Assembly (NCBI GenBank): GCA_017991375.1
Contig: JAGOQP010000004.1
Span: 6,499 to 70,498 of the forward strand
Origin: Minisyncoccota bacterium
GTDB taxonomy: Bacteria > Patescibacteriota > Minisyncoccia > UBA6257 > JAGOQP01
DNA: 64,000 nucleotides
Reading direction: 5' to 3'
Positions 1,031 to 64,000 of the stretch are shown one piece after another. The position numbers were made by a program, and so were the translations under genes. Under the pieces are notes generated by a model, which saw only the letters and a list, made by a program, of their open reading frames with translations, had not been told where the DNA came from and ran no database searches. Every line of letters starts with the position of its first letter. The stretch's first letter is position 1.

Positions 1031-3154
1031 CTAACGCGCCAGCGCTTGTTCTATGCTTTTTATACGCGCGCGTACAACTTCAAGACGCCGCGCATCCCCT
1101 TTTTTGGCAATAAATGGCTCTAATTGTTTATACACATCAAGCGTTGCTCTGTCTGTTCCTCGAGTAAACGCGGGAAGAGTAAACGCTTTTTCCATAAGGT
1201 CAATCACTTGTTCAATGGGTGGATCTTGGCGGGTGAGGAGCACCGCCGCCAAAAAGAAATACGAATTACCCACGCGTGGATTTAACTCAATTGTTTCTTT
1301 AAGTAATTGCTCTGCCTTTTCATGTTCGCCTACAAGCGCCAACGTATATCCATAATAATATCGTGTATCCTGACGCTTTGGAGCAAGCGTGAGCGCCTTT
1401 TCGTAGTACACTAACGATTGGTCCATATATTTCATGTTATTAGTTGCCTGGCCCAACGCCGCGTAGGTTTGCGCGACCACGGTAAATGCTCTTGGGTTGT
1501 ATGGTTCTCGTTGAGCGAGCTCCTCGGTCGCCTGCAATACACGGATGAATATCTTATTAACCTCTTCGTTTTTCCCCACATACTGTTGAAGCGCGCCGAG
1601 CAAGCTTTGTCTAATATCTTGTTGCGCGTATGTATAGGGCTCAAGCATGCTATCCAAACTTTCTTTCATAACTTGAACGGTTGTCGAACCACTAAGCTTA
1701 TTAAGCGTTACCCGCATTTGAGCATACGCGACACAAGACATCACAAACACAATCGCGAAAAAAATTCCCACTGACGCAATAATAACAGTGAGCCCAACAC
1801 CGTTACGCGCGTGTTCGTGATGATCAATGGGCACCGCCTCTTTTTCTTTTTCGCTCTGGGCGTTCCACAATAGCGCGCCAAACGCGATGAACACAAAAAA
1901 TGGAATGTATGTTGAAACGGACTCAAAAACAAAAAGATTTTGGATAAAATATGCTACCCCAAAAAAAGTAATCGCCCCCGTTTCAATGCTGAGCGGACGT
2001 CGTAGTACCACCCACACCAGGAATACCCACAACGCAAGATATGCCACGAGCCCAAGCACGCCATTCATAACCGCAACGTCCATTAACTTATTATGCGCGC
2101 GATCAAACCAGTTTTGTTCAAACTCAAAATATTTCGGATTGTAATACTTATTATACGCAACTGAAAAATTTTCAGGACCCCAACCAGTAAGAAACTTTAC
2201 CGGCCCATTAGTAATGGGGTTGAGCGCCCGCGCGCTCACGCCAAGTGAAATTAAACGTGTCTGTAATGTGGGATCATTAAATGAAGCGGCCGCGAGACGA
2301 TCTATTCCTGGAATTTTTTTCCAAAACGCATCCGATTTAGTTAGAAGAAACACTACCGAGAGCATAATAACGAGTCCCACGATAACCAGTGCTATTTTTT
2401 TAAGATGCCATCTACCAAACAACATTCGATCACCCGATTTGACCGCCATAATAAGCGCCGCCACCGCAAGTCCAGCGCCCATACCAATCATCACACCACG
2501 CGTTTGAGAGACCAAAATACCCACCAGAGAGAGTGGGAGCATCGCCCATGCGACAAGGTGCCACTTACTCCCTCGCTCACCAATAACCATAAGCGCCGCG
2601 AATATAGTAAAGAGAAAAAGAATGGCAATATATATTGGGTTTCCAGTAAATGAACTTGGACGCGCCTGCCCGAGCGACAGCCACTGATACATTTGATTAA
2701 TAAAGAGAACGCCACCGGTAATCAGAGAGAGCTTGCAAAACATAAGCCAATCTTTTTTCGCAAACACCAGCATACCAAGCAAGAAAAATCCAAAAAAGAA
2801 TGACATCCCGAGCAATCCTTCCGCGCGCTCGATGTCTCCAAAAAAGGCACGGAATGTATTTACCGCGGTGAGCGTGCTTACAATATAGACCACAAAAAAC
2901 GCCGTTACTGAAATAACAATGGGATTTTTTTTGATTTGAGAAAAACGTTCGGCGATTTCTTTTCTGAACGCGTTGTTTGCCATCGCGTATCCCGCACACA
3001 AAAGCGTCGCAACCATAACCAATATTTTTATGGCCATGCTTTTGCCGGTAATATATGGGAAGAACACCCCCGAATCGACGATGAGTGGAACAAACGCAAG
3101 GAGCAATAAACTCCATACTATAGCTCGTTTCATATGGTATAGATAATAGAACAA
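1031..3154 (-). CDS. polytopic membrane protein with O-antigen-ligase (Wzy_C)-like core and C-terminal TPR repeats
   Basis: 707 aa with about 12 predicted TM helices and a large periplasmic-type loop, typical of WaaL/O-antigen ligase-like proteins. The C-terminal ~250 aa contain repeated TPR-like helices (AYYYGYTLALVGEHEKAEQLLKETIELNP...). This architecture is common in CPR glycosylation loci. Confidence 0.6.
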   Translation of the reverse strand: MFYYLYHMKRAIVWSLLLLAFVPLIVDSGVFFPYITGKSMAIKILVMVATLLCAGYAMANNAFRKEIAERFSQIKKNPIVISVTAFFVVYIVSTLTAVNTFRAFFGDIERAEGLLGMSFFFGFFLLGMLVFAKKDWLMFCKLSLITGGVLFINQMYQWLSLGQARPSSFTGNPIYIAILFLFTIFAALMVIGERGSKWHLVAWAMLPLSLVGILVSQTRGVMIGMGAGLAVAALIMAVKSGDRMLFGRWHLKKIALVIVGLVIMLSVVFLLTKSDAFWKKIPGIDRLAAASFNDPTLQTRLISLGVSARALNPITNGPVKFLTGWGPENFSVAYNKYYNPKYFEFEQNWFDRAHNKLMDVAVMNGVLGLVAYLALWVFLVWVVLRRPLSIETGAITFFGVAYFIQNLFVFESVSTYIPFFVFIAFGALLWNAQSEKEKEAVPIDHHEHARNGVGLTVIIASVGIFFAIVFVMSCVAYAQMRVTLNKLSGSTTVQVMKESLDSMLEPYTYAQQDIRQSLLGALQQYVGKNEEVNKIFIRVLQATEELAQREPYNPRAFTVVAQTYAALGQATNNMKYMDQSLVYYEKALTLAPKRQDTRYYYGYTLALVGEHEKAEQLLKETIELNPRVGNSYFFLAAVLLTRQDPPIEQVIDLMEKAFTLPAFTRGTDRATLDVYKQLEPFIAKKGDARRLEVVRARIKSIEQALAR

Positions 3155-4239: not shown

Positions 4240-5604
4240 CTATATCCCATACGTAATCGTCGCCAATTGAATAAATTGCCACACGACGATCAGAAAAAAG
4301 AAAACAACGACTATTGGATATTTTAAGAACCATTTCCCAAGCATCCACGCCAAAAGAATAACCAGGCACAATAAAGACGGAAAGTAGTGGTATAAAAATG
4401 CCACGCGAGCGATAGCAGTGTATGCCAAAAGATTCACCCAGTACCCAAACATCAAAAAGAGTACCGCCCACGCCTCGGTGGTCATTCTTTTTTCGCGCGT
4501 TGTCTTGATAACAAACCACAGCAGCGCCCAGAAAAACGCACCCACCCCCGCGTACCAAATAATTTCATTCCCATGAAGATACATCGTTGGTGTACGAGGT
4601 GTCCCAAAGGGTCCGAGCCAATAGTAGATAGGCTTTATGCCAAACGGCCATTGATACCATGCTGAACTTTCGGTATGAGGAGCGGTTAAATCACGATTAT
4701 AGGTAAACATTTTCTCATTGAGCTCAACGATTTTGTAGAGCATGTTCTGTGGAACAAAATCATTGGTGTGATAGTATTCATTTCCTACTAATGTCGCGCG
4801 AAACGGCCCCGTCATATATACATCACCTGTCCCACTCAGCGGAAGAAGCGCTAAATGAAGCCAGCACCAGAACATATAGACACCAACAGCACATAGTGCC
4901 AAAAGCGTCCCCAGTCCAAGCATTATTAGACGCTTTCCTTTTCTCGCGATAATATCAGCAAGAACTACCACCCCCGCGAGGCCGATAAAAAATACCCCTG
5001 TCATTTTGACGCTTGCAGCACATCCCACCAAAACACCCGCGACAACATAAAGGGCGATTTTTGACCATTTCCGCTCGCGCGTTCGCGCGAGCCATAATAT
5101 CCACAACCCCGCAATACCAAAAAGAAGTAAAAAAATATCCATGAGCGCCAGCCGCGATTGCGTAAGTAGCGCGTTATCAAAAATAACCAAAAGTCCAGAG
5201 AAAAACGCTACGCTCTTTTTTTTAAAAAGCTGATACGAAAACGCGTACATCGCTAGCACTAACAACACTCCCGCAACGCTCACCGCGGCACGATACGCTT
5301 TATAGGAATTATCCGTATACTGCTGACCAATTTTGGTAAAGGTAAACGATGTGTTTGGTTCGTGCCCTGCTATGAGCGCGGCACCAGCCATCACCAATTT
5401 GGCAAGAGGAGGATGTATATCAAAATAATACTTTCCATCGAAATAGCGATCGGTAAATTGAGCAAAGTGAAATTCGTCAAACACAATTTGATCAGGATAC
5501 CCAAACGCAAAAAAACGAGTAGCCACAGCGAGAAACAAAAGCACTATCAGCAATGTATAGTGATTAGAAAACAAAGAGGCACACCGCGTGCAAAATTTTT
5601 TCAT
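4240..5604 (-). CDS. PMT-family (GT39) protein O-mannosyltransferase / phospholipid-carrier-dependent glycosyltransferase
   Basis: The track ORF begins with a TTG at 5655; the first ATG (MKKFCTRC) is at 5602-5604. It has many TM helices, and the first periplasmic loop carries FDEFHF...DIHPPLAKL, the conserved DE and HPPL(G/A)K motifs of Pmt / ArnT-like GT-C enzymes. Confidence 0.7.
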   Translation of the reverse strand: MKKFCTRCASLFSNHYTLLIVLLFLAVATRFFAFGYPDQIVFDEFHFAQFTDRYFDGKYYFDIHPPLAKLVMAGAALIAGHEPNTSFTFTKIGQQYTDNSYKAYRAAVSVAGVLLVLAMYAFSYQLFKKKSVAFFSGLLVIFDNALLTQSRLALMDIFLLLFGIAGLWILWLARTRERKWSKIALYVVAGVLVGCAASVKMTGVFFIGLAGVVVLADIIARKGKRLIMLGLGTLLALCAVGVYMFWCWLHLALLPLSGTGDVYMTGPFRATLVGNEYYHTNDFVPQNMLYKIVELNEKMFTYNRDLTAPHTESSAWYQWPFGIKPIYYWLGPFGTPRTPTMYLHGNEIIWYAGVGAFFWALLWFVIKTTREKRMTTEAWAVLFLMFGYWVNLLAYTAIARVAFLYHYFPSLLCLVILLAWMLGKWFLKYPIVVVFFFLIVVWQFIQLATITYGI

Positions 5605-5648
5605 ACGAATATAGTATAGCAAACACGAGAGAAAATTATGGCGCAACA

Positions 5649-5683
5649 AAACCAAAACGACCCGTTAAGGGTCGTTTTGGTTT
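5649..5683. terminator. perfect hairpin (15-bp stem) between the two minus-strand genes
   Basis: aaaccaaaacgaccc-gttaa-gggtcgttttggttt. The stem ends in a U-rich run on both strands. It lies directly downstream of the stop of the 5733..7595 gene. Confidence 0.5.
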
Positions 5684-5732: not shown

Positions 5733-7595
5733 TTATTGCATGTTCAAAGCTGATGTCTTCCACACGTTCTCGTCCATAGTCGTGTAGCCCAACGTGCGCG
5801 TTGCGCTCGCTGCCCAACCGACTTTCTGGAGCGTGAAGTGATACAAGCCATCACCAGTTGAGTTGCCCTTATTCATGACAAAGTCAACCGTGATTGTTCC
5901 TGTAACATCCTTCGGCAGTTTGTAGATAGACGTGTCAGATTGCACTTGGAAGTTTGAATCCAACGAGACCAGCTTGCTGGTTGTGGTTGAGTTCGTGTCT
6001 TCTGTGTTTGACTTGTAGATCTTCAAAACTGTTGAAGTTGAAAGATTCAAGAAGTACAAATCGCTTCCACCTGCCTTAACGGTGAAGGTGAACTTACCCG
6101 TGAGTGAGCTGGTTGAAACACCAGATACACCTGGGAAGAATGTCAACGAGGTTGTCGGAGCTGATGCAAACACTGGAGCAACCTTGAAGACGCTCAAGCT
6201 GTCGCTCGTTGCCGAGCCAGTAGCTGTTACTGAGTCGCCCATGCTGTTCTCCGCTGTCACACCTGCTGTCGCTCCAGTTCCTTCAACGTTGATCTTAACG
6301 GTTCCCGTGTATGCGGTTGTTGTCGCGCCACGGAAGTCTCCCTTAATGGTCAACGTCTTTGTTGAATCCTTGTCGACGTATACCTCAACATTGCTGATTG
6401 ATGCTAATCCCGCTGCACTCACTGATCCTGATCCAATGAGGGTTGACCCATCATAGACGTAGATCGTGTTAAGAGCCGGCGATGAACCGCTTGCCCATGT
6501 GGTTGAAGTCACGTTGAATGCAGTGACTTTAATGCGATCATTTTCTGAGCGCAAATCAAATGCCAACAAGGTCGCGGCGCTTACATCTCCCTGGTTGTCA
6601 GAGAGGATGTTTCCGGTCTTTGGTGAGTTGACGTTCTTTGAGATTGTCAACGCAGCTGAGTTTGCCAAGGTCTTCTTAGCAGTAAACGTGCGGCTGAATT
6701 CCGTGGTCGGGCCGTATTGGCTCAAACCAAGTCCGTCAAGTCCGCGAACGCCATTTTGAGGAACCGTCAATGTGTACGTAGTGTTCACATATGACGAATC
6801 AATCGTGGTGTTAACGTCTGCTGCAATGTACAAAACGCGGGTCTCATCCTTCTTTACTAAGAAGTTGAAGCCTGAAATCGTTATGTAGTACGTTGTTCCT
6901 TCTTTAACAATAGTTGAAGAATTTAACGCAACTTCTGCCAACGTTGCCGAACCATCGGTTACGTAGAGGCGATTCAAGATCTTGTTGTAGATCGTGGTTG
7001 CAGTTCCAAGGCTCAACTTCACGCGCTCGATGCTTACATCGCCGAGTGTTGCTTTTGCCTTGATACCCATCACGTTGATCTTTGAATTCCCTTCGTACAC
7101 GTTTGTTCCAGCGGCCGGAGATGGGTTGACTTCAACAGTCAACGAACCTTCTGACTTTGTTGTTGGAACAACAGTTGTTGTTGGGGTCACGGTCGTGGTT
7201 GGGGTGACCGACGTAGCCAAGTAGGCACGCGTCTTTGGTCCAAAGTATCCCGATGCCGGCGTGATTCCAACTGATGCCTGCCATGCTGCCAAGGCTGTTT
7301 TGGTCAAAGGACCAAAGAATCCAGTCGGAGCAGTAATAGCGAGGAATCCTTTTGCAATCAACATTGATTGCAATGATGACACATCGTCTCCCTTTGAACC
7401 CACGGTGAGGTCGCGAGTATATGAGGTTGACGCTGTTGATGTTTGCCCAAGCTGTGCTTGCAAGGTTTGGATCTGAGCCAAGAGGGCCGCGATCTGAGCC
7501 TGCAAATCAGCTGTGCTTTGTGCGTTAACGTTAACTGAAGGGACGAGCACTATTGCCGCCAATGCAACTAACGCAACTTTCTTTAATGAACTCAT
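5733..7595 (-). CDS. secreted Thr/Ser-rich surface protein with N-terminal coiled coil and peptidoglycan-binding (PG_binding_1-like) repeats
   Basis: The start was moved to the internal Met MSSLKKVALVALAAIVLVPSVNVNAQ, a clear signal peptide. This is followed by LQAQIAALLAQIQTLQAQL (coiled coil) and two GYFGP.T..AL..WQ repeats of the PG-binding kind. The next ~450 aa are Thr/Ser/Val-rich beta-type sequence (TPTTTVTPTTTVVPTT...). Confidence 0.6.
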   Translation of the reverse strand: MSSLKKVALVALAAIVLVPSVNVNAQSTADLQAQIAALLAQIQTLQAQLGQTSTASTSYTRDLTVGSKGDDVSSLQSMLIAKGFLAITAPTGFFGPLTKTALAAWQASVGITPASGYFGPKTRAYLATSVTPTTTVTPTTTVVPTTKSEGSLTVEVNPSPAAGTNVYEGNSKINVMGIKAKATLGDVSIERVKLSLGTATTIYNKILNRLYVTDGSATLAEVALNSSTIVKEGTTYYITISGFNFLVKKDETRVLYIAADVNTTIDSSYVNTTYTLTVPQNGVRGLDGLGLSQYGPTTEFSRTFTAKKTLANSAALTISKNVNSPKTGNILSDNQGDVSAATLLAFDLRSENDRIKVTAFNVTSTTWASGSSPALNTIYVYDGSTLIGSGSVSAAGLASISNVEVYVDKDSTKTLTIKGDFRGATTTAYTGTVKINVEGTGATAGVTAENSMGDSVTATGSATSDSLSVFKVAPVFASAPTTSLTFFPGVSGVSTSSLTGKFTFTVKAGGSDLYFLNLSTSTVLKIYKSNTEDTNSTTTSKLVSLDSNFQVQSDTSIYKLPKDVTGTITVDFVMNKGNSTGDGLYHFTLQKVGWAASATRTLGYTTMDENVWKTSALNMQ

Positions 7596-7760
7596 GTTTC
7601 TAAATTTTGTATAGGATTTTCTTGTTTTAGTAATCGTTTCGTTTTTCCTTTTGTGGAAAAACAGTTCAGATAGCACACTCCTCTGCTACCGACCCGCTGC
7701 TTCATCGGTGAGGACGAATCAGCAAGCTAACAGTTAATACGGAATGAGCTCCTGTTTCAT

Positions 7761-7960
7761 TACCGGTCTCTTTGTGGAGACCAGTCTCAAAAATATGGCC
7801 ATATTTTTGAGACTGGTTCCCGCAAAAACAAAAAGCTCACCGGCAAGGTGAGGCAACACAATACAAGGACGGAAAGCCGCGCAAAAAACGCCGTTTCCGT
7901 TGATCAGTGATCGCTTGTATTCTGCCTCACGGTTAGAAGCGATATACTCGCCTAACCACA
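7761..7960. promoter_or_regulatory. highly structured intergenic region (multiple hairpins including a 36-bp perfect palindrome at 7781..7816)
   Basis: ccagtctcaaaaatatgg|ccatatttttgagactgg is a perfect palindrome. Adjacent hairpins are ggtctc-tttgtg-gagacc, ctcacc-ggcaa-ggtgag, acggaaa..tttccgt and ggttag..ctaacc. The region is the ~380-nt stretch upstream of the 5733..7595 gene on the minus strand. Confidence 0.4.
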
Positions 7961-8134
7961 GAACGAAAGCTCTATTTCTACGATGCGCCCATTATACACG
8001 AGTGGGGTATTTTTGTCAATAATCCGACTTTGTGTACACCGGGAAGCACCTCTCTTGGCTTTTAATGTTCAAGCGGCGCCGAGCGCCGTTCGAGAGTATA
8101 AACGAAACACATCCATATCCGTTACGGGTGTGTG

Positions 8135-8974
8135 TTACGCCGTCTTTTGTTTCTTAATACGCAAGAATGATTTAGGGCCACCCGTCCCTACTCGTTCAAT
8201 AATCTTCTTATCAACTAATCGTTGGATATCATACCTCAATGTCCGGTCACTAATCCCTGGAAGTATGTCTTGGATGTCTTTTATGTGGCATAATGTGCGC
8301 TTTTTTAACAAATCAACAATCATCTCCTGTCTTTCAGAAAAATATGCCGCTTTTGGTATTTCATCTACACTTTTGGCCATACTTATTGCCGGACTTTTTT
8401 GTGTCTCTGTTATTTTGGCAGTGTTTATGCCGTCTTTTTCAATATTCTCATTGCCGGACTTTTTATCTTCTTTTATATATGTTGCCGGACTTTTTTGCGA
8501 TGCGTCTATATCAATAGATTTTACGCCACTATTTATCATTTTCTCATTGCCGGACTTTTGTGCTTTTGTTTTCACTTCTTCATCTTTCTCTTCGGATATG
8601 TGCGCAATCATTTTCGCGAACTCCGAAAATATCATAGGTGGTTTTGAAAACATTTCTTCTATAAGAATTCTTTCTTTGCTCCCCTTAGCAACTGTTTCCG
8701 CTTTCTCATACACCATATCCGAGAGGGTTTTTTTAAGCCCGTTTATTTCCCTGAGCAAAACCCCCGCATTGACACTACTTATTTCCCCCACCTCTTGGGT
8801 CAAGCGAACAGCATATTCAAGTTCAGCTAAGGTATCTACCGTTTTTGACCCCATATACGAAAGTGCGACATCTTCAAGATACTTTTGGAGCTGTGGACGA
8901 GAAATATGGGCCGCCACTCGGAACACGGCCCACACCACCTCAAACGATCGTTGTTTAAAAAAATCTGAGGGCAT
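8135..8974 (-). CDS. DNA-binding protein with C-terminal DeoR-type winged-helix HTH and internal short peptide repeats
   Basis: The C-terminus ERQEMIVDLLKKRTLCHIKDIQDILPGISDRTLRYDIQRLVDKKIIERVG is a typical DeoR/wHTH domain. The middle region has repeated KSGNE / QKSPA peptides, encoded by a 4x DNA repeat (ttgccggacttt). The overlapping plus-strand ORF 7983..8981 is low-complexity antisense. Confidence 0.5.
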   Translation of the reverse strand: MPSDFFKQRSFEVVWAVFRVAAHISRPQLQKYLEDVALSYMGSKTVDTLAELEYAVRLTQEVGEISSVNAGVLLREINGLKKTLSDMVYEKAETVAKGSKERILIEEMFSKPPMIFSEFAKMIAHISEEKDEEVKTKAQKSGNEKMINSGVKSIDIDASQKSPATYIKEDKKSGNENIEKDGINTAKITETQKSPAISMAKSVDEIPKAAYFSERQEMIVDLLKKRTLCHIKDIQDILPGISDRTLRYDIQRLVDKKIIERVGTGGPKSFLRIKKQKTA

Positions 8975-9060
8975 AAGATGATCATTAATCGTTAACTATT
9001 AACAACAGGACTGATACTAAAGTACTCTTTGAACGATAACCTCATGCTGATAAACCAGTA

Positions 9061-9541
9061 AAACAAATACTTTTAGGAAGCGGGAAGGTGGGCAAACCAC
9101 CTTCCCATATTTGAACAGAAGCTTCTTACTCTTTTCTTCCTCGAGCGCTTTACAGACCACGATGTATTCAAGATCGTCCGTAGCCTCCGGCTCGTGAAGA
9201 AGTATTGAAAGAGCTTTGGCCTAGTTCGCTGTCGGCTATGACTTGGGTTGGTTTGTTGGTGGCACTTTTGCCTTTTCCTTGTCTGACGTGCCAGCTTCCG
9301 CCTGCGAAATTTCTGGCATATGAAGTCGCATGCCGGTCACGACATCGAGCCCGCCGCTCAAGCTGCACAGACAGGTAAAGCGACCGTGGTCGTCTTGTGG
9401 GAACATTTCTGCCCCACACCGAGGGCATGTCGGCCCGCGCCCATGACGACGCATGTACTGATCAGTTTCATCCCAGTACCCCATGCGACACCTCCTTTGT
9501 TTTGTTATTAGTTTTGAAGCTTCCTAAAAGTACTTGTTTTA
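9061..9541. mobile_element. IR-bounded GC-rich insertion (MITE/IS-remnant-like)
   Basis: The left end aaaacaaatacttttaggaagc (9061..9082) and the right end gcttcctaaaagtacttgtttt (9520..9541) are inverted repeats with 21/22 matches. The interior is about 55% GC against a ~40% background. A strong hairpin, gggaaggtgg-gcaaa-ccaccttccc, sits just inside the left IR. Confidence 0.4.
9236..9484 (-). CDS. small zinc-ribbon-like protein carried on the IR-bounded GC-rich element
   Basis: 82 aa: MGYWDETDQYMRRHGRGPTCPRCGAEMFPQDDHGRFTCLCS..., with a CxxC ... CxC arrangement. A strong SD (aaggaggt) sits 5 nt upstream of the ATG on the minus strand. GC-rich codon usage is unlike the neighbouring genes. 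Confidence 0.45.
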   Translation of the reverse strand: MGYWDETDQYMRRHGRGPTCPRCGAEMFPQDDHGRFTCLCSLSGGLDVVTGMRLHMPEISQAEAGTSDKEKAKVPPTNQPKS

Positions 9542-9840
9542 AAGAGCAATGCATCAAATAACTACCCCACTTGCCACATACACACCCTTCCGTAGTCCAC
9601 CACGGATGGACGTAGAGGGTCCACCCCGGGCCCGTCGAAGAACTACACGCTATCTGCCATAAGCTTATTAGACACGCGCTACATTACCCCTACCATAGAG
9701 CCGATAAAAATAGAAGTCAAGGCATAGCGTATAAGTAACATAAAAGAGCGCCATTTCATCGTTGTGTTATTGTAAAAAATCAATACTCTTTTTTCTTATC
9801 CTATTCTCTCTCCTCTCTATACACACCCTTCATCACCCAT

Positions 9841-9878
9841 TTGACCCCTTTTTTCACGATCGTGAAAAAAGGGGTCAA
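9841..9878. repeat. 38-bp perfect palindrome, copy 1 (TTGACCCCTTTTTTCACGATCGTGAAAAAAGGGGTCAA)
   Basis: Exact palindrome. It has the 5' flank tcatcacccat, which is shared with copy 3. It lies about 50 nt upstream of a TGnTATACT extended -10. Confidence 0.9.
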
Positions 9879-9918
9879 TCATACACTTCTATAAGTTATC
9901 AACACTCATATACATTTT

Positions 9919-10040
9919 TGTGATATACTTTTTAGTATCATGAGAACATTGGCAGAAAATGGTGCGCGCGCCAACACGGTGTGTCAGACATACGTGACCC
10001 CGTAGCATGTTAACGTTCCGCCCCGATGGGCGGTTTTTGT
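9919..10040 (+). ncRNA. candidate small transcript / leader: extended -10 promoter (tgaTATACT, 9921..9929) to intrinsic terminator (10018..10040)
   Basis: A TGnTATACT extended -10 element is followed about 100 nt later by ccgccc-cgat-gggcgg plus tttttgtt. The transcript would contain a 22-codon ORF (MRTLAENGARANTVCQTYVTP*) with no SD. It ends 50 nt before the 10092 gene. Confidence 0.3.
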
Positions 10041-10091
10041 TAATAAAGTCACGCCTCCATTCACTGCTCTATTATAAGTAACACAACATAT

Positions 10092-10661
10092 ATGTTTGAA
10101 GGCGCACAACAAAGCGGAGTCGCTCCGCTATCGCCCACTCCGCAATCACAAACAAAACGATTGTGGAAATTTGTCGGCATGTTTGTCGGGATTATCATTA
10201 TCGCCGCAGGTATTTATTACGGATGGGAGTATTATCTAAGCCCATCGGCGCGCGGGCGCATAGATGCCAGCACTATGCAAAAAAACTACGAACAATTTGC
10301 GCAACAAAAAGCTCAATATGAAGAAGCGATGAAGAACGATACTTATGGAGGGAAAACACCAGAGGAAACGCTTTCTCTGTTTATTTCAGCCCTTGAAAAA
10401 GGCGATGTCGATTTGGCAAGTAGATATTTTCTTATAGGAGAGAAAATTAGCCAGAGCGAATGGCGCGACGGCATACAAAAAATGAAGGACGCAGCACAGT
10501 TGGGATTTATAATAAATGATATAAAGTCATCTGAATTATTGGAAAGGTCGGAAATGCTTAATTACGCAATATTTAGAACAACAAATAAGGAATCGGGGCC
10601 TCATGACATATCGCTTAAACTCAATACGTATTCAAATATTTGGAAAATAGAAAGTTTATAG
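10092..10661 (+). CDS. hypothetical membrane-anchored protein (single N-terminal TM)
   Basis: 189 aa with one N-terminal TM segment (FVGMFVGIIIIAAGIYYGW) and a soluble C-terminal domain. No recognisable motif. It is probably co-transcribed with the nuclease gene. Confidence 0.5.
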   Translation: MFEGAQQSGVAPLSPTPQSQTKRLWKFVGMFVGIIIIAAGIYYGWEYYLSPSARGRIDASTMQKNYEQFAQQKAQYEEAMKNDTYGGKTPEETLSLFISALEKGDVDLASRYFLIGEKISQSEWRDGIQKMKDAAQLGFIINDIKSSELLERSEMLNYAIFRTTNKESGPHDISLKLNTYSNIWKIESL

Positions 10662-10704
10662 AAACCATGCTTTCAGCACATTACAAATATTATATCTACC
10701 ATCT

Positions 10705-13700
10705 ATGCACTCTATTAATTCAAAAAGAGCGTTTTTTGGAGCCCTGGTACTCACTGTGTTATCGGGGCTTTTTTGTTCTCATCCAGCACTCGCCTATCAA
10801 CCACAGACACACCGCTTTATTACCGAGCAAGGCATATCCCTCTATAACAAAAGCCACCCCGATGCTCCTATTTCAGAAAGCGCGATATCGTTTATGACCG
10901 ACGGAGCGCGACGAGAAGACGATCCCCTGCGATGGTTAAACCATTTCTACGATCCGATAAGCAAGAAGGGGCTGAGTCACAACGGAGCGATTGACCCCCT
11001 TTTTCAATTTGGTACATGGGAATCATCAAAGCTGTGGGCACAAGACGAACAGAACCAAAGTCGTATCGTATACTCACCCCTTATCGCGACGATTTTATCT
11101 AGCATCCAACAAAAGCAAGTTGAAAAATTTTTTCCCACATCAATATTTACCTGGGACCGCGCCATTACATATTGGGTAGAAGGAAACATTGAAATGGCTA
11201 TGGTAACGCTCGGTCACGTACTTCATCTTACGCAAGACGCCTCTGTCCCCGACCATACCAGAAACGATCCACATGTTTCCGGAAGTCCTTATGAAGATTT
11301 TGTTGGAAAATCAAATGTATTAAAAACGAATAGCAGTATCATTTCTTTGGCAAAAGAACAGCACAAACCGCTTTCATCCCTTGAGAACGCGTTTGATCAG
11401 ATAGCTCTTTATTCAAATAATAATTTCTACAGTAAAGATACCATTGGCATACAAAGTGGATATGAAGATCCACAGCCAGATTTTTTTCAAAAGGAAGGAA
11501 CGAAATACTTCGGTATTAAAAATGGCATAACAAAAGATTACAAACTATACAAAAGTCTTTTGGGGAAAAGCTATTTCTTAACAAATAATTCATTAATTAC
11601 ATTAGCAGATGAAGATGTCCTCTCCGATTATTGGTCTCTTCTTGGTCCAAAATCAATAGCGAATACAGCTGGGGTAATTGAGTTATTTTTTAAAGAAGCT
11701 CGAGCGGCACAGCGTAATGCCTCTATTAGCCACGAAAAATCATTTTTTGCTCGAATTGTAGACGCCGCAAAAGGAGCTATTATCGACTTATTCTCATCGG
11801 CAACAAATCAAGACGAGGAAATTATCACCATTCCAATCTCAAACACCTCGCCAACTCCGAGCGTAAGCCACCAAGCCACGCCAACACCTTCCAAAACCGT
11901 TGCGCCGACAAAATCGCCAACTCCTTCGCAACCACTAATCACAACATTTCCCACTCGCGCGCGTGTACTGAGAATTATTGATGGAGATACTATTGTACTT
12001 GAAAATAATATAACCGTGCGATATCTGGGAATTGATGCTCCCGAACTGGAGGATAGCACAACAAAGAGTGGGTGTTTGGCGCAAGAATCAAAACAGCGCA
12101 ATACAACACTTGTTAACGGAAAAACAATTTCTCTTGAGTACAGCGGCGAGAAAACCGATTCATTCGGACGATTACTTGCTTATGTCTCTGTCGACAACGC
12201 GCTGGTAAATCAACAACTAGTCCGCGAGGGGTTGGCGTATGCGTATAACTTCAACCACCCTCATCCAAAGGAAATGGTTTTCTCGTCTGCTCAAGAAGCG
12301 GCGCGAAAAGATAAGATTGGGTTATGGGGATCTTCATGCGCACCCACGCCGACGCCATCTCCCTCATCAACACCAAAAATAACTCAAAAGACAACAAAAA
12401 CATCCGCTCCGTCGTGCTCGCTTATTTCCTCTCAAACCCCGTCACATAATCAACTTATTATAAACGAAGTCGCATGGATGGGATCTCCCACAAGCGCCAA
12501 TGACGAATGGATTGAGTTAAAAAACATAGGATCTTTTCCTATTACATTATCGGGATGGTCGCTTGCCACTCAAGATGGGAATCTCCGTATTGATCTTTCA
12601 GAATCAAAGCGACTTGTTATACCTCCTGACCAGTTTGTATTACTCGAACGAACAAATGACGCAAGCGTTCCTACTATCACTGCCGATATTATTTATAGTG
12701 GGGCTCTTTCAAATTCCAACGAGCGTCTTATGCTCTTTGATCCCTCATGCGCTCTTATAGACGACGCGCTCGCGGGATCATCATGGCCAGCTGGGGATAA
12801 CGCGACAAAGCGAACAATGGAACGCGCCCAATCTGGATTTGGATGGCACACATCGCAAGAAAGCGGCGGGACGCCAGGGAGAGAAAATTCATATCAATCT
12901 TTTGGCTCGGGCGGTGGGGGAGGGTCATCGGGGACATCGCCTTCTCCATCGTCATCGCCTACCCCGTCACCATCAGCGTCGCCCTCTCCGTCTCCGACAC
13001 CAACAACGCTACCAAACGTGCGCATCAATGAAATCATGTATAACCCAGCAGGGGCTGATGATGATCACGAATGGATAGAGATATATAACGAAGGATCAAT
13101 TGCTTTTGATGTAACGTCTTTACGTCTTATTGAAAACGAAACGGCGCATATAACTTCCGCAATCGGGCAAACCACTATCGCTCCATTAGAATACGCTATT
13201 ATCGCCGACGACGTAGATACCTTTTTGACTGATCACCCTGGATTTACTGCTCCCGTATTTGATAGTTCTTTTTCTCTGAGCAACGAGGGAGAGTCCCTTT
13301 CTCTTTCATATGACAATCAAATAGTACACAGCGTACCCTATCAAGCTACGTGGGGAGCAAATGGCGATACATCATCGCTTCAATTTATGAATCCGGGATG
13401 GTACGCCTACCAACCGACGCCCGGAAAAGAAAACACGCCCTCACAAGAAATCACATCAGACCCAATATCCGCGTCGACACATATACTAATCAGCGAAATA
13501 CAGGTCGCGGGGGCATCTCCTGATGATGAATTTATTGAACTATACAACCCCACCGATTCATTCATATCACTCCGTGATTATTCCATACAATACATCAGTG
13601 GACGCGCGGAGACACTTTCTGATCCTTATAAGAAAAATTTTCCCGATGATGATCTTATTGCCCCTCATGGGTTTTATTTGCTAGCAAACGGGGGTGGGTT

Positions 13701-15363
13701 ATTTGCTCAAAAAGCCGACATGACATGGAATAGCTTTTCTCTTTCGGGAGAATCAAAGGGAGGAATTATCGTTCTTGTTGCTACCACCACGCCCATCACC
13801 ACACTGGCCACCTATCCCATTATTGACCAAATCGCCTACGGAACACCAATTCTTCAGCCATCAGCAGCGCCACTCCCCGATCCGAGCATGAGCATTGAAC
13901 GAAACGCCCTTATTTCAACAAAATGCTTCATCGCACAAGGCGCCTACCTTTTTAGCGGAAATGGATGCGACACAGACGCAACAAGTGATTTCATAGTCAA
14001 TGAAAATCCTTTTCCACAAGGGTCATCCAATTTAGCAGAACCCAGATCGGGACCAGGATCCCCTATATCATTTGAAGCGTTATATGATCCGAGTACATTT
14101 GTGCTCTCACTCTCATGGATGCCTGCTGACGAAAATAGCTATTATGTTCCAGAAAAATCCATAACCACGAATCCATCTGATGGTTTTATTTCTCTAGGAA
14201 CTACCACTGACTTAACAAGTCAAGCACGAATGATAGACATTGGCTTAGATTACACCATACAAGTTACCGCATATGATGCCGATGGATTTCCTTCTGCACC
14301 GGCGACAACAACTATTTCCATGCCGGGAATGCTTACTCATCTTTATTTTTATGAAACATCTCCGGGATCGGAAGCATATGTTCTTGAGCCAATATTCAAA
14401 ACCTATCCATTCGTTATTGATCCAAACATAAAAGAAGATATCCCCCACTGGAGAGCACTCGCATTTTTTCTTGATCAGCCAACTATATCAGTTATGCCGC
14501 AATATCCGTACGGTAGTATTGAAGGCATAAGTGGCGGGATGCAAATAACCCACCCCACTTGTATAAATCCTGATGGGACCATAGTTACTCAAGCAGTGAC
14601 TTTTCCCGACACGGCTGGTATGTGTGGAAGTGGTGGAGGAATTTTCAACTCAACGTATCCATACGCATTACTTGAAGATAATCGCGTTCGCCTTCCAGTG
14701 GCGCCAGACACTGCCGCTCAAATTACTCCAACGTCTACCGTTATTGTCGCGTTCTTCACCTCGGGAAAATCAACTAACGGCGACGGACGTTATCCTGAAT
14801 TCTTACGTGTAGTGGTCGATCGATTTCCCGTCTCTTTAGGAGAGCCCCCAGAACCACTACCACCAACACCCCCTGTTATTACCACCACTGCCGATAATTT
14901 TGATCCAATCCGTGAGAAATTAGTTGTAACATGGGATGATTCGTCCGATCCCGACTCACTTGATCGTTATATCGCTTATGAATTTCGCGGCGGCGCCTCT
15001 ACTCAACCCATAACCGATTACCCGTGGTTGCCGGCCGTACGCAGTATTGATGGATCAACGTATGTAGAACCAAGCATAGAGGCGCGCCAAGGAGAAACAT
15101 ATGTTATTCATATGCGCGCTGTTGATGAAGACGGGCATTATTCTGATGTTTCCACTATACCTATTTCTATTCCAGCTACAGAGATGCTATTAACGGCGCC
15201 GCTGTTGTTTTCTGCGCCTCCGTTACTGGATGACAAAAATGTGAGTAGCGCATCCAGCACTGACGAATCTATTGTCCAACCAACAACCCCATCTGAGACG
15301 CTACCAGAAAATCCAGCAACCACGCCGGCGCAAAACTCAACAGAAACAGAGGACAATGTATGA
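10705..15363 (+). CDS. giant secreted multidomain nuclease: Zn-dependent PLC/S1-P1-like N-domain + staphylococcal-nuclease (SNase) domain + three lamin-tail domains
   Basis: 1552 aa with a signal peptide. The N-domain has WLNHFYDP...LGHVLHLTQDASVPDHT, matching the zinc ligands of PLC / S1-P1 nucleases. The SNase domain is VLRIIDGDTIVL...VRYLGIDAPE...GRLLAYV...NQQLVREGLAYAY. Three LTDs follow (LIINEVAWMG..DEWIELKN; VRINEIMYNPAG..HEWIEIYN; ILISEIQVAG..DEFIELYN). The domains are separated by PSPSPTPT linkers. Confidence 0.8.
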   Translation: MHSINSKRAFFGALVLTVLSGLFCSHPALAYQPQTHRFITEQGISLYNKSHPDAPISESAISFMTDGARREDDPLRWLNHFYDPISKKGLSHNGAIDPLFQFGTWESSKLWAQDEQNQSRIVYSPLIATILSSIQQKQVEKFFPTSIFTWDRAITYWVEGNIEMAMVTLGHVLHLTQDASVPDHTRNDPHVSGSPYEDFVGKSNVLKTNSSIISLAKEQHKPLSSLENAFDQIALYSNNNFYSKDTIGIQSGYEDPQPDFFQKEGTKYFGIKNGITKDYKLYKSLLGKSYFLTNNSLITLADEDVLSDYWSLLGPKSIANTAGVIELFFKEARAAQRNASISHEKSFFARIVDAAKGAIIDLFSSATNQDEEIITIPISNTSPTPSVSHQATPTPSKTVAPTKSPTPSQPLITTFPTRARVLRIIDGDTIVLENNITVRYLGIDAPELEDSTTKSGCLAQESKQRNTTLVNGKTISLEYSGEKTDSFGRLLAYVSVDNALVNQQLVREGLAYAYNFNHPHPKEMVFSSAQEAARKDKIGLWGSSCAPTPTPSPSSTPKITQKTTKTSAPSCSLISSQTPSHNQLIINEVAWMGSPTSANDEWIELKNIGSFPITLSGWSLATQDGNLRIDLSESKRLVIPPDQFVLLERTNDASVPTITADIIYSGALSNSNERLMLFDPSCALIDDALAGSSWPAGDNATKRTMERAQSGFGWHTSQESGGTPGRENSYQSFGSGGGGGSSGTSPSPSSSPTPSPSASPSPSPTPTTLPNVRINEIMYNPAGADDDHEWIEIYNEGSIAFDVTSLRLIENETAHITSAIGQTTIAPLEYAIIADDVDTFLTDHPGFTAPVFDSSFSLSNEGESLSLSYDNQIVHSVPYQATWGANGDTSSLQFMNPGWYAYQPTPGKENTPSQEITSDPISASTHILISEIQVAGASPDDEFIELYNPTDSFISLRDYSIQYISGRAETLSDPYKKNFPDDDLIAPHGFYLLANGGGLFAQKADMTWNSFSLSGESKGGIIVLVATTTPITTLATYPIIDQIAYGTPILQPSAAPLPDPSMSIERNALISTKCFIAQGAYLFSGNGCDTDATSDFIVNENPFPQGSSNLAEPRSGPGSPISFEALYDPSTFVLSLSWMPADENSYYVPEKSITTNPSDGFISLGTTTDLTSQARMIDIGLDYTIQVTAYDADGFPSAPATTTISMPGMLTHLYFYETSPGSEAYVLEPIFKTYPFVIDPNIKEDIPHWRALAFFLDQPTISVMPQYPYGSIEGISGGMQITHPTCINPDGTIVTQAVTFPDTAGMCGSGGGIFNSTYPYALLEDNRVRLPVAPDTAAQITPTSTVIVAFFTSGKSTNGDGRYPEFLRVVVDRFPVSLGEPPEPLPPTPPVITTTADNFDPIREKLVVTWDDSSDPDSLDRYIAYEFRGGASTQPITDYPWLPAVRSIDGSTYVEPSIEARQGETYVIHMRAVDEDGHYSDVSTIPISIPATEMLLTAPLLFSAPPLLDDKNVSSASSTDESIVQPTTPSETLPENPATTPAQNSTETEDNV

Positions 15364-15419
15364 GATAAAACTACAAGTAAATGAGATACAAAAAACCACT
15401 CGACATCTGAATATTCTCC

Positions 15420-15457
15420 TTGACCCCTTTTTTCACGATCGTGAAAAAAGGGGTCAA
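15420..15457. repeat. 38-bp perfect palindrome, copy 2
   Basis: Identical to copy 1 over all 38 bp. It lies between the nuclease stop (15363) and the 15528 gene. Confidence 0.9.
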
Positions 15458-15527
15458 AAACCGACAAGACCAATGAGCACACCGGCGATCAAACAATCAA
15501 CACACCAACTATTAAAATAAAATCCCT

Positions 15528-16091
15528 ATGATTTACGCACATTCCGCTTGTTATAAATATAAACACAAATACTCGGCATCAATAGCACTTCTTAAATTAC
15601 TTATCGGCTGTGGGCATGTTTCGCTTGATGAATTTTTAAAAAACTCCAACAAAAATTTAACTAAAGACCAATTGTTAAAAAACCGCAAAGCGTATCACAA
15701 AATGATACATAAGTTACACCAAGAGGGGCTCGTCGAAAAAATAGACGACAGAAGAAAATCGCCAGTGAAAGTGGTGTCTGGCAAATTATCTACCCTTAAG
15801 GAAAAGCTACTCAAAAAAGACTTGGCCCAACATACATTGAGAGATGGGGGTCAAAAAAGCATGTTTCCAATAATTGTTGCGTTTGATATACCAGAAAAAT
15901 ATAGAACAAAAAGAGATTTCCTTAGACGATTACTCCAGTCATTAGGGTATCAGATGATACAAAAGAGTGTGTGGATCGGCTATTATAAACTGTCAAAAGA
16001 TTTCATGGACGAGTTAAGAGAAATTAGAATTCTTCCTTATGTTGACGTATTTTCAATAAACCGATCAGGGACTATTAGAAAGTACCAATAA
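15528..16091 (+). CDS. solo winged-helix + Cas2/VapD-like domain protein (putative regulator or nuclease; no cas neighbourhood)
   Basis: 187 aa. The N-terminal half looks like a wHTH (LDEFLKNSNKNLTKDQLLKNRKAYHKMIHKLHQEGLVEKID). The C-terminal half, MFPIIVAFDIPEKYRTKRDFLRRLLQSLGYQMIQKSVWIGYY, follows the Cas2 beta1-alpha1-beta2 pattern (compare YDITDD..RNRVAEFLKKMGKRVQYSVFEC). The first codon in the track may not be the true start. Confidence 0.5.
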   Translation: MIYAHSACYKYKHKYSASIALLKLLIGCGHVSLDEFLKNSNKNLTKDQLLKNRKAYHKMIHKLHQEGLVEKIDDRRKSPVKVVSGKLSTLKEKLLKKDLAQHTLRDGGQKSMFPIIVAFDIPEKYRTKRDFLRRLLQSLGYQMIQKSVWIGYYKLSKDFMDELREIRILPYVDVFSINRSGTIRKYQ

Positions 16092-16129
16092 TCACCACCA
16101 TACTCTGCTTATTTTGTGTCATCACCCAT

Positions 16130-59897: not shown

Positions 59898-60606
59898 TGT
59901 CTTTGTTTATCTTTCTGTTTATTACTATCTGTTGTATAACCGAAAAAACAGATGTCGTCAACCAGTATATCGCGATAGCCGAAGGGAGGTTGTACAAAAT
60001 AACAATAGTCAGTAGCGGCCCTACAACCATCATTTGTTTTGACACTCGTTCTGTTGTTGAGAGCTCTTTTTTGGGATCGCGATTTTTTTTAGCCACACCA
60101 AACAACAACGCCGACTGAATATACTGCGCCACCGCGGCCATTACCACCAACACCACGCTTTTTTTGCTTAAATCAAATACTCCTAGAAAAGAGTAGTTTA
60201 TTACTGTGGGGTGGGCTATAAAAGTATATAATTTATCTAAAACGTCCTGGGAAAAACCCTTAAAAAAAACTTGGTATAACCCGATGAGAATGGGTAGTTG
60301 GATAAACAACAAAAGAAAGCCGGCAAAGGGATTTACTTTGTGCTCTTTGTACACATTCATTATTTCTTGTACTTGCTTCTCTTTGTTTTCTTTGTGTTCT
60401 TGTTGTATTTCTCTAATACGCGGCGCGATTTTTTGCATAATTGTCTGATCCTTCGCGCTTTTGTAAAACAGTGGCAGTAAAATTGTTCTAATGATCACCG
60501 TCACAATCACAATCGCGATTCCCAAATCTGCCCACGTATTGTTGTACACCAAAAACAGCAGGTTAAGTAACGGTCTGTATATTATTTCATTAAACAAAGC
60601 GATCAT
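59869..60606 (-). CDS. yidC: membrane protein insertase YidC (short form)
   Basis: 245 aa with 5 TM helices. The conserved TM2/TM3 region NPFAGFLLLFIQLPILIGLYQVF is present. Synteny rnpA-yidC-jag holds. Confidence 0.8.
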   Translation of the reverse strand: MIALFNEIIYRPLLNLLFLVYNNTWADLGIAIVIVTVIIRTILLPLFYKSAKDQTIMQKIAPRIREIQQEHKENKEKQVQEIMNVYKEHKVNPFAGFLLLFIQLPILIGLYQVFFKGFSQDVLDKLYTFIAHPTVINYSFLGVFDLSKKSVVLVVMAAVAQYIQSALLFGVAKKNRDPKKELSTTERVSKQMMVVGPLLTIVILYNLPSAIAIYWLTTSVFSVIQQIVINRKINKDNEKNTGDSN

Positions 60607-60941
60607 GATTGTTTTAGTAGTTTTACTACGTCTTTTTTTAATTCTTCTTTTGTTTTATGGGCGACTCCCGGCAGTGCCAGTATAACATACGCGCATTCTT
60701 TTTGTTCACATACTTTTTCCAGGCGTAGTGTTTCGTATACCACTCTTTTGATTCTATTTCTCTCTGTTGCGTTTTTTGCAACCTTCGTAGACACTACCAC
60801 CGCACACCCTCCTTTGGTTGTTTGGGTTTTATATTGTTTAATTAAAAAGAGCGACGAGCGTTTTGAGATTAGTTGTTTTTTTTCGCTCTCTGCCGCTCTT
60901 TTGAAAAACAGTGTTGTGAGTCGGTGTTTTTTCTTAAGCAT
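60603..60941 (-). CDS. rnpA: ribonuclease P protein component
   Basis: 112 aa, basic, with the RNR motif (ATERNRIKRVVYE). It lies directly downstream of rpmH. Confidence 0.75.
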   Translation of the reverse strand: MLKKKHRLTTLFFKRAAESEKKQLISKRSSLFLIKQYKTQTTKGGCAVVVSTKVAKNATERNRIKRVVYETLRLEKVCEQKECAYVILALPGVAHKTKEELKKDVVKLLKQS

Positions 60942-60953
60942 TTATCGCTGTTC

Positions 60954-61100
60954 TTACTTTTTTCTTCGCACCGCGAGCTTTTTTCGTCCCTTAGCTCGCC
61001 TACGCGAGAGCACTTTCCTTCCCGGGGCTGTTTTCATTCGTTTTAAGAACCCGTGTGTTTTTGATCTCTTTTTTTTCTTTGGTCTGTATGTTAATGACAT
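60954..61100 (-). CDS. rpmH: 50S ribosomal protein L34
   Basis: The minus strand was hand-translated as [48 protein letters not shown] (48 aa). It is not in the ORF track because it is below the size cut-off. This is the classic L34 sequence. Confidence 0.85.
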
Positions 61101-61169
61101 AGTTTTTTCATACTATCACCTTTTTTTCTGAATAACAACCTTTGGCGTGCTATTTGCGTCTCTCTTTAT

Positions 61170-61200
61170 TTTTTGTTATCCACACCTTATTCACACCCGC
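61170..61200. promoter_or_regulatory. DnaA boxes upstream of dnaA (rpmH-dnaA spacer)
   Basis: TTATCCACA is at 61176..61184 (perfect). TTATTCACA is at 61187..61195 (1 mismatch). Confidence 0.6.
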
Positions 61201-61314
61201 AACCTTGTTGCCACTTTTATTTGTTTCCTGTTTGGATTACAATACAAACGCTCCTGTTGTTTTTTATAAAAACCCGCATTATTACTATCTTATTTTTTAT
61301 ACCTTTTTTAAATC

Positions 61315-62688: not shown

Positions 62689-62827
62689 TTTTATTGCTTT
62701 TTATCCACACTCTTTTCCACATATTATTATTTAATTATCCTGTATATTTATTCGTTTATTTCTAGTTATTCCCATTATCCACACCTTCTATAACTACTAC
62801 TATATTTATATATAAGAACACATACAT
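62689..62827. promoter_or_regulatory. oriC-like dnaA-dnaN spacer with DnaA boxes and AT-rich unwinding region
   Basis: TTATCCACA occurs at 62701..62709 and 62775..62783 (both perfect). TTTTCCACA is at 62713..62721. The AT-rich tract tactatatttatatataag lies at 62795..62815. Confidence 0.6.
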
Positions 62828-63946: not shown

Positions 63947-63949
63947 TTT

Positions 63950-63983
63950 ATCACACACCCCCGCTCATGCGGGGGTGTGTGAT
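63950..63983. terminator. perfect 15-bp-stem hairpin after dnaN
   Basis: atcacacacccccgc-tcat-gcgggggtgtgtgat. There is no clear U-run on the plus strand (followed by aaaaa), so its function is uncertain. Confidence 0.3.
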
Positions 63984-64000
63984 AAAAACTAATTTGATAG

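Follow-up and report, generated by a model that had tools for sequence, protein, structure and literature searches.

How a bacterium that makes neither lipids nor nucleotides could take them from its surroundings is a question raised by one locus of a Minisyncoccota bacterium. The Patescibacteria (candidate phyla radiation, CPR), the ultra-small bacteria to which this organism belongs, constitute a large share of bacterial diversity. They are devoid of lipid and nucleotide synthesis, and no mechanism of lipid acquisition is known for them (PMC11665869). The locus lies in a 64,000-nucleotide (nt) stretch of contig JAGOQP010000004.1 (assembly GCA_017991375.1), hereafter called the window, and its largest open reading frame (ORF), 10705..15363 on the forward strand with an ATG start, encodes a giant secreted protein of 1552 amino acids (aa) that joins a phospholipase C (PLC)-like head to a nuclease. 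The best explanation overall, to which we give a probability of roughly 0.45, is that this protein is a secreted multi-module hydrolase scavenging from a host or from debris. That the substrate of the head is phospholipid is a tentative part of this explanation, which we likewise place a little short of even odds.

A first-pass annotation of the window had described this ORF as a chimera of a Zn-dependent PLC/S1-P1-like domain, a thermonuclease (SNase) and three lamin-tail domains (LTDs) separated by Pro/Ser/Thr linkers. Its coordinates and length proved exact on re-reading, and every motif that it quoted is present (WLNHFYDP at aa 77-84, LGHVLHLTQDASVPDHT at aa 169-185, and GDTIVL, YLGIDAPE and GRLLAYV). 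The order of the domains holds as well, with the SNase and the LTDs detected by Pfam, and the linkers are seen in the translation as Pro/Ser/Thr/Gly-rich stretches (Table 1). An identical protein, preceded by the same upstream gene, is encoded on an independent Logan assembly contig; the giant ORF is thus not an assembly chimera. There is no paralogue of the protein within the 64-kb window.

Fold and active site of the head domain

A model of the head built with AlphaFold2 (AF2) on the family alignment (predicted local distance difference test, pLDDT, 84.2; predicted template modelling score, pTM, 0.79) was compared with the PDB using Foldseek. All of the first 17 places are taken by zinc phospholipases C (E 8.5e-5 to 3.5e-3, probability 1.0), including alpha-toxins, Bacillus cereus PC-PLC and Listeria PlcB, with target-normalised template modelling (TM) scores of up to 0.67. 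S1/P1 nucleases come next in the list, at E 0.5-1.1 and TM-scores of about 0.25-0.38. The profiles point the same way: the Zn-PLC model PF00882 is reached at E<=0.01 by 28 of 97 family members (best E 4.6e-6), and the S1-P1 model PF02265 finds neither the head at E<=10 nor any of the 97 members. In hhalign, the family profile matches the core motif of B. cereus PC-PLC with 91% probability (E 9.5e-7) and P1 nuclease with 2%; both values are leads and not formal tests. As a single sequence, the head has no match among PDB sequences. The first-pass assignment to a Zn-PLC/S1-P1 domain therefore stands in part: membership of the Zn-PLC/P1 superfamily is borne out by fold and family evidence, and what fails is the Pfam support, with the head alone below the PF00882 cut-off and without an S1-P1 match. 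The confident fold, together with the family-level evidence, rescues the superfamily assignment despite the low Pfam score. The head is a distinct lineage-specific branch of this superfamily, nearer the PLC side, and, since it misses the PF00882 definition, we leave it outside that family. Two elements are additional in the model, a beta-hairpin subdomain at aa 260-284 and a helix of 60 residues at aa 303-364.

PLC binds its metals through nine ligands, namely W1, H14, D55, H69, H118, D122, H128, H142 and E146 (PLC numbering). The hhalign alignment to PC-PLC pairs H174 of the head with H118, D178 with D122, H184 with H128 and E197 with E146. Moreover, Y31, H36, D72 and H80 correspond to PLC ligands by motif and order, and HFYDP (aa 80-84) matches the PLC motif that holds ligand H69. 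Among 80 aligned heads, Y31, H36, D72, H174, D178, H184, H190 and E197 are kept in all, H80 in 79 (the other sequence has an X), and some 20 other positions vary little or not at all.

The N-terminus of the mature protein deserves particular attention. Mature PLC and P1 start with Trp1, whose free amino group and carbonyl bind zinc. In 81 of 81 sequences of the present family, an invariant Tyr directly follows the signal-peptidase site [AVTS]-x-[AG], with a His five residues on. Judging from this pattern, the family appears to use Tyr1 as PLC and P1 use Trp1. The spacing from the predicted residue 1 to His6 equals that of Trp1...His6 in P1, as opposed to 1-to-14 in PC-PLC. A lipoprotein signal peptide was considered and rejected, as the G-L-F ahead of Cys24 is no lipobox and the conserved cleavage site is ALA|Y.

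Comparison with characterized enzymes places these features in context. Like B. cereus PC-PLC, the N-domain of Clostridium perfringens alpha-toxin and Listeria monocytogenes PlcB, the head has an all-alpha fold and carries the H-x3-D-x3-P-x-H...YE and HFYDP motifs, which align; like them it is secreted, with an aromatic residue as its (predicted) mature N-terminus. It differs from them in having Tyr and not Trp at position 1, in the 1-to-6 spacing to the first His, in the Gly/Asp at the position of H142, with a family-specific D188/H190 pair instead, and in always being the N-terminal module of a 1000-1900-aa LTD protein. The clostridial alpha-toxin PLC has a C-terminal PLAT/C2-like membrane-binding domain that is not present in the giant protein, where a full-length Pfam scan at E<=1 found no PLAT or C2 domain and the head is followed by a linker and then the SNase. 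With the S1/P1 nucleases (PF02265; bacterial SmNuc1, trypanosomatid 3'-nucleotidase/nuclease) the head has the superfamily in common and would use the same trinuclear-zinc chemistry, and the giant protein would share the logic of surface nucleotide scavenging in an auxotroph. They are nevertheless set apart from it by the lack of a Pfam match, the Foldseek E of 0.5-1.1 and the hhalign probability of 2%.

Distribution and modular composition of the family

One genome per GTDB species was scanned, and at least 561 loci were found to encode a relative of the head; the titled genomes among the listed loci are all Patescibacteria (Wolfe-, Jorgensen-, Harrison-, Brenner- and Colwellbacteria, Paceibacterota). 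In a HMMER search over 1.84 billion representatives, with clustering at 50% identity, the family amounts at E<=1e-3 to 7,372 clusters, and at the stricter E<=1e-30 to 1,166. Nearly all of 96 database homologues of the head are unnamed Patescibacteria proteins, many of which end at contig ends, and the names in use are 'hypothetical' or 'lamin tail domain-containing'. A few homologues (P0010, P0063; L012, L014, L015 and others) are labelled Gallionella sp., Legionellaceae or 'uncultured Candidatus Saccharibacteria'. As all other members are of the Paceibacteria type, these odd labels, of which the Saccharibacteria one is unverified, may reflect mis-binning or placeholder naming.

To compare loci, we took 80 (L002-L081) of the at least 561 and used the modules of the window protein as probes. 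In all 80, the head stands as first module at the N-terminal end of a very long ORF, typically of 1000-1900 aa. LTDs are found in at least 58 of these ORFs and, by phmmer, the C-terminal modules C_a, C_mid and C_b in 46, 32 and 32, respectively; the SNase occurs in only five (L003, L007, L008, L009 and L024), always between the head and the first LTD. Among database proteins long enough to judge, 4 of 205 head proteins carry an SNase and 3 of 205 a helix-hairpin-helix (HhH) module. The SNase is thus present in about 2-6% of family members, counting both samples. All 36 of 36 full-length representatives combine the head with an LTD. The first-pass annotation had regarded the PLC-like head as the unusual addition to an LTD-nuclease fusion; the reverse is the case. 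Head and LTD are the constant core and the SNase is an occasional insertion. In a crude neighbour-joining (NJ) tree of head domains, the SNase-bearing members are not resolved as a single clade, and their most recent common ancestor spans 31 of 81 sequences.

The complete order head-SNase-LTDx3-C_a-C_mid-C_b recurs in the same five species-level genomes and partly in P0153 and P0321, so that the window architecture is a variant met repeatedly, not an isolated chimera. The slot between head and LTD holds another module in L049, namely a ComEA-type HHH_3 DNA-binding domain (L049:11174-11581, aa ~433, E 5.6e-21); HHH_3 is also fused in P0215 (E 2e-20), P0278 and P0307. We further collected the segments of 170 aa or more left unexplained by the window modules, 67 in all, in which Pfam gives only PKD, LTD and fn3. 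In the broader sample, a right-handed beta-helix (Beta_helix/NosD) is present in 17 of 36 members (P0224-P0263), as are PKD, fn3 and Big domains. Beta-helix members carry it in place of C_a/C_mid/C_b, which suggests a sub-branch with a different target-binding part. The C-terminal half is thus variable and looks like targeting or adhesion hardware.

In the window protein, the C-terminal ~500 aa, given in the first-pass annotation as a beta region of ~450 aa, have no Pfam match, and BLASTP of C_a against C_b gives a marginal 16-residue match only (E 0.023). C_a, C_mid and C_b are probably beta-sandwich targeting or spacer modules. No hydrophobic 19-mer, and hence no membrane anchor, is found beyond the signal peptide, and a hydrophobic segment in that part of the protein occurs in only 2 of 68 complete family ORFs.

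The SNase module and the lamin-tail domains

The SNase call of the first-pass annotation is fully supported. PF00565 matches aa 437-541 with 68.9 bits against a cut-off of 21 (E 6e-19), covering model positions 1-105 of 107. The NCBIfam NucI model (NF047694) scores 74.9 bits on aa 418-541, against an equivalog cut-off of 250; on these scores, the module is a homologue of NucI and not an equivalog. In staphylococcal nuclease, calcium is bound by D21, D40 and the backbone of T41, and R35, E43 and R87 are catalytic. An alignment to Staphylococcus aureus nuclease structures in the PDB (E 7.5e-17) shows D21, R35, D40, E43 and R87 all conserved, so that every catalytic and Ca-binding side chain whose loss would have spoken against the call is in place. 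The same five residues are intact in all five other SNase-bearing homologues, and Thr41 is replaced by Ala in the window protein and these homologues. Whichever substrate the head has, the giant of the window is very likely an active extracellular nuclease through its SNase.

All six modules (window, L003, L007, L008, L009, L024) moreover contain a Cys pair that the S. aureus enzyme does not have; in the window protein it lies at aa ~467 and ~545 (about 12103 and 12337), in KS-x-C and WG-x-x-C contexts. It probably forms an extracellular disulfide. A DsbA-like gene recurs near the locus in other genomes. Staphylococcal NucI enzymes stand alone, whereas the SNase here is an internal module of a giant protein.

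The three LTDs are equally well supported. In the full-length scan PF00932 covers three stretches (E 4e-37), and each LTD scanned alone exceeds the 34.3-bit cut-off. The (I/V)NE start that had been given for all three repeats is found in LTD 1 and 2; LTD 3 begins with ISEI, a trivial difference. Secreted proteins that combine LTD and nuclease to degrade extracellular DNA, as the giant may, are known from Shewanella (ExeM) and Vibrio (Xds) (PMC6085458). ExeM consists of one N-terminal LTD, OB-fold regions, an EEP nuclease domain and a C-terminal hydrophobic anchor (PMC6085458), whereas the giant has an SNase and not an EEP domain, three internal LTDs and no anchor. Accordingly, only the LTD part of the ExeM/Xds model NF033680 matches (13.7 bits against 1300), and no EEP domain is found in the giant. 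LTDs are associated with extracellular nucleases such as ExeM, and what the LTD itself does has yet to be settled (PMC6085458).

The upstream partner gene

A homologue of the gene that precedes the giant in the window, which the first-pass annotation did not mention, is found immediately upstream and on the same strand in 80 of 80 loci (E 5e-14 to 6e-44), and BLAST clustering of the neighbouring genes recovers it in 79. We refer to it as the partner, and to the two genes as the cassette. The partner and giant genes typically overlap by 21 nt, the partner stop lying within the first codons of the giant gene; in the window they are separated by 43 nt. The 'MENRK[YF]V' start of most homologous giants is found here out of frame only (TTG at 10640), over the partner codons for IWKIESL. 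The ancestral overlapping start of the giant gene seems to have been lost in the window.

The partner protein consists of an N-terminal transmembrane helix (aa ~21-49), a long helix and an NTF2-like cone domain, and while its DTYGGKTPEET motif is invariant, IWKIESL is conserved at its C-terminus. It has no Pfam match and no name in the sources searched. Its AF2 model (pLDDT 87) reproduces the transmembrane helix and the cone, and the best Foldseek matches are ketosteroid-isomerase-like proteins, de novo NTF2 designs and the N-domain of PBP5 (probability 0.97-1.0, E 3e-3 to 3e-2). By the alpha+beta cone fold of this model, it is a member of the NTF2-like superfamily. Membrane-proximal NTF2-like domains are found in the N-terminal domain of PBP5/PBP2a and in SnoaL/ketosteroid-isomerase-like proteins, and the partner likewise has a transmembrane helix followed by the cone. 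It differs from known NTF2-like proteins in belonging to no sequence-level family, in its own DTYGGKTPEET motif and in being a stand-alone protein genetically coupled to a giant hydrolase. Since the giant itself has no membrane anchor and is coupled to a membrane partner, we infer that the partner may tether the giant to the surface of the producer or protect the producer membrane.

Proposed mechanism and alternative explanations

In the explanation that we prefer, the giant would be secreted through the Sec pathway and its signal peptide cut before Tyr31, giving a new mature N-terminus. The amino group of Tyr31, together with H36, D72, H80, H174, D178, H184, H190/D188 and E197, would build a three-zinc site capable of phosphodiester cleavage, with which the head would cut the phosphodiester of membrane phospholipids outside the cell. 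The Ca-dependent SNase would cut released DNA/RNA, and C_a, C_mid and C_b, which follow the LTDs, would act as spacers or target-binding parts. The translationally coupled NTF2-like membrane partner would keep the giant at the surface of the cell or else protect the membrane of the producer itself. The products, from a host cell or from debris, would feed a bacterium unable to make lipids or nucleotides. We favour phospholipid as the substrate of the head because every direct measure of similarity (Pfam, Foldseek, hhalign) prefers PLC, and also because a membrane-active enzyme would be well served by an outward-facing membrane partner, be it as anchor or as immunity protein. A combined attack on host envelope and DNA, as the first-pass annotation proposed, is possible.

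Several observations weigh against this explanation. The head alone (aa 1-400) reaches only 13.1 bits with PF00882 (E 0.09; cut-off 26.8), and its identity to solved PLCs is just 14-18%, with TM-scores of 0.35-0.67. Searched against PDB sequences, the head-family profile finds neither PLC nor P1, and the SarA matches that it returns (E ~0.015) are spurious. PLC ligand H142 pairs with Gly193 of the head (G in 46 of 80 heads, D in 29 of 80). With this position lost, the third metal site has to be rebuilt with H190/D188, an invariant pair in the loop just ahead; the alignment offers no other candidate to take the place of H142, and the pair may do so. The residues of the PLC choline pocket are not evidently conserved. 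Finally, extracellular nucleases such as ExeM are the best-known carriers of LTDs (PMC6085458), and the additional enzymatic or ligand-specific modules of the family are DNA-related only (SNase, HHH_3), if rare. The argument that only DNA-related modules are recruited is weakened by the beta-helix found in 17 of the 36 members of the broader sample.

Some of these points lead to the view that the whole giant serves nucleic-acid scavenging, the PLC-like-fold head acting as an S1/P1-type nuclease/3'-nucleotidase, a serious rival that we nevertheless judge somewhat unlikely. The SNase would then yield 3'-phosphorylated oligo- or mononucleotides, and the zinc head would trim them or strip the 3'-phosphate, in a manner that would mirror the surface 3'-nucleotidase/nuclease of purine-auxotrophic trypanosomatids. 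Consistent with such a role, 6 of 81 genomes and 4 of 205 database proteins have the SNase directly after the head, HHH_3 is fused in L049 (in the SNase slot), P0215, P0278 and P0307, and no lipase, lipid-binding or PLAT/C2 module was found in the 80 + 36 relatives. The head also has P1-like traits: its Tyr1...His6 spacing equals the Trp1...His6 of P1, and its invariant Arg76 lies four residues past Asp72, like Asp45...Arg48 of P1. The company that LTDs keep with extracellular nucleases such as ExeM is in line with it too (PMC6085458), and, as competence genes are dispensable in a cultivated relative, another source of nucleotides would be needed (PMC11665869). However, PLC is preferred over S1/P1 throughout (Pfam 28 against 0, Foldseek E 1e-4 against 0.5-1, hhalign 91% against 2%), only a few per cent of the members have DNA-related modules, whereas about half of the broader sample has a beta-helix, and an outward-facing membrane-bound partner is of no obvious need to an extracellular nuclease.

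The variable C-terminal half bears on a further possibility, namely that the head cleaves some other phosphodiester-linked polymer of the host surface or the biofilm matrix (teichoic acids, phosphoglycans, lipid-linked glycans), to which the C-terminal modules would direct the giant. Domains such as Beta_helix/NosD (17/36), PKD, fn3 and Big typically occur in proteins that bind polysaccharides or resemble tailspikes, the conserved neighbourhood contains envelope genes (Wzy_C, polysaccharide flippase, PG_binding protein, DsbA-like protein), and the rebuilt third metal site suggests an altered specificity. The window protein itself, however, has no beta-helix by Pfam, and we know of no member of the PLC/P1 superfamily with a substrate of the teichoic-acid or phosphoglycan type; on balance we consider this idea quite improbable. 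A head that is catalytically dead, serving as a structural or adhesive module of an adhesin with a nuclease, has still less to commend it. The sub-cut-off Pfam score, the loss of one canonical ligand position and the long array of Ig-like modules and linkers, as in surface adhesins, would agree with it, but some 30 head positions, including eight of nine ligand equivalents and H190/D188, are near-invariant at only ~35-45% overall identity, a pattern that points to an active site and makes a dead head very improbable. That the ORF is an assembly or annotation artefact joining separate genes, as metagenome-type sequence and the truncation of many database homologues at contig ends might suggest, is refuted by its independent occurrences (the identical protein on the Logan contig, the same order in L003, L007, L008, L009 and L024 and partly in P0153 and P0321) and deserves practically no credence.

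Novelty and significance

The building blocks of the system are of known kinds: the Zn-PLC/P1 fold, the SNase, the LTD and the NTF2-like domain. In a literature search whose coverage was not exhaustive, no description of a PLC-like + LTD family was found. Four features appear to be undescribed: that the head forms a branch of its own, with Tyr1 and a third metal site that is rebuilt; that in giant secreted proteins it is obligatorily tied to LTDs; that the giant is strictly coupled, at the genetic level, to a membrane-anchored NTF2-like partner; and that the head is restricted to the Patescibacteria, in which it appears to be ubiquitous.

A large, lineage-restricted family of putative secreted phosphodiesterases with a membrane partner represents a concrete and testable candidate for the acquisition of lipids and nucleotides. 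In its most far-reaching form, the two-gene cassette, present in thousands of Patescibacteria lineages, would be the long-sought machinery that extracts phospholipid-derived building blocks from hosts, and nucleic-acid-derived ones too in the SNase/HhH variants, with the partner as immunity factor or anchor; we regard this as an unlikely, speculative extension. The window protein, whose nuclease is intact, offers a handy entry for biochemistry, as the predictable activity of the SNase can serve as an internal control beside the head. Should the Saccharibacteria labels prove genuine, the cassette might be present in cultivated relatives.

Features of the locus and its surroundings

Table 1. Features of the cassette and its immediate flanks, in window coordinates
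Feature	Coordinates	Strand	Basis or remark
Intrinsic terminator-like hairpin CCGCCCCGATGGGCGG (10018-10033) with T-run	10018..10041	+	Strong; closes upstream unit
Partner gene, 189 aa, transmembrane helix and NTF2-like cone	10092..10661	+	AF2, Foldseek, alignment
Sec signal peptide, aa 1-30	10705..10794	+	Hydrophobic core, then predicted cleavage ALA|Y
Head domain, aa 31-~365, all-alpha, putative trinuclear-zinc phosphoesterase of PLC/P1 superfamily	10795..11799	+	AF2, Foldseek, hhalign
SNase (thermonuclease) domain, aa ~418-545	11956..12339	+	PF00565, NucI model, PDB alignment
Lamin-tail domain 1, aa 578-686	12436..12762	+	PF00932, 44.7 bits
Lamin-tail domain 2, aa 768-879	13006..13341	+	PF00932, 46.7 bits
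Lamin-tail domain 3, aa 922-1026	13468..13782	+	PF00932, 50.5 bits
C_a (aa 1036-1195), C_mid (aa 1190-1405), C_b (aa 1400-1500)	13810..15204	+	Family-conserved by phmmer
Low-complexity acidic Ser/Thr/Pro tail and stop codon	15205..15363	+	Translation
PaaX-type regulator-like protein, 187 aa, Cas2-like central domain	15528..16091	+	PF20803 E 7e-15; CRISPR_Cas2 E 2e-5

The cassette begins a new transcription unit after the hairpin. Promoter-like sites are not in excess (15 found, 15.9 expected from shuffles), so that we assign no promoter, no Rfam family is present within 7000-16400, and no tRNA was found in the window. The PaaX-type protein encoded downstream may be a regulator of the cassette; homologues are found near the cassette in about 38-40 of the 80 loci, usually just upstream of the partner or after the giant.

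Other recurrent neighbours are housekeeping genes (SpoU, DUF192, GAPDH, a TrxB-like oxidoreductase, RpiB, Rpe) and envelope genes (polysaccharide flippase, PG_binding protein, DsbA-like protein, Wzy_C), and several of these recurrent genes also lie within the window. Clustering of the neighbouring ORFs in the 80 loci revealed no linked transporter, only housekeeping and envelope genes. The nature of these neighbours indicates that the cassette is a vertically inherited chromosomal feature and not a mobile island. The envelope genes of the window comprise a Wzy_C/TPR protein (1031..3154), a PMT glycosyltransferase (4240..5655) and a PG_binding_1 protein (5733..7676); Wzy_C, PG_binding_1 and polysaccharide flippase recur by the cassette in L006, L065 and L078. 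This envelope-gene neighbourhood is conserved synteny across Paceibacteria-type genomes.

Between these genes and the cassette, the region ~7700..10030 contains only ORFs without a Pfam match. Long ORFs overlap there on opposite strands (7983..8981 on the forward and 8135..8974 on the reverse strand), and small Arg/Cys-rich ORFs lie at 9168..9484 on the reverse strand. At the right end of the window (60001..64000), the G+C content drops from about 0.43 to 0.34-0.38.

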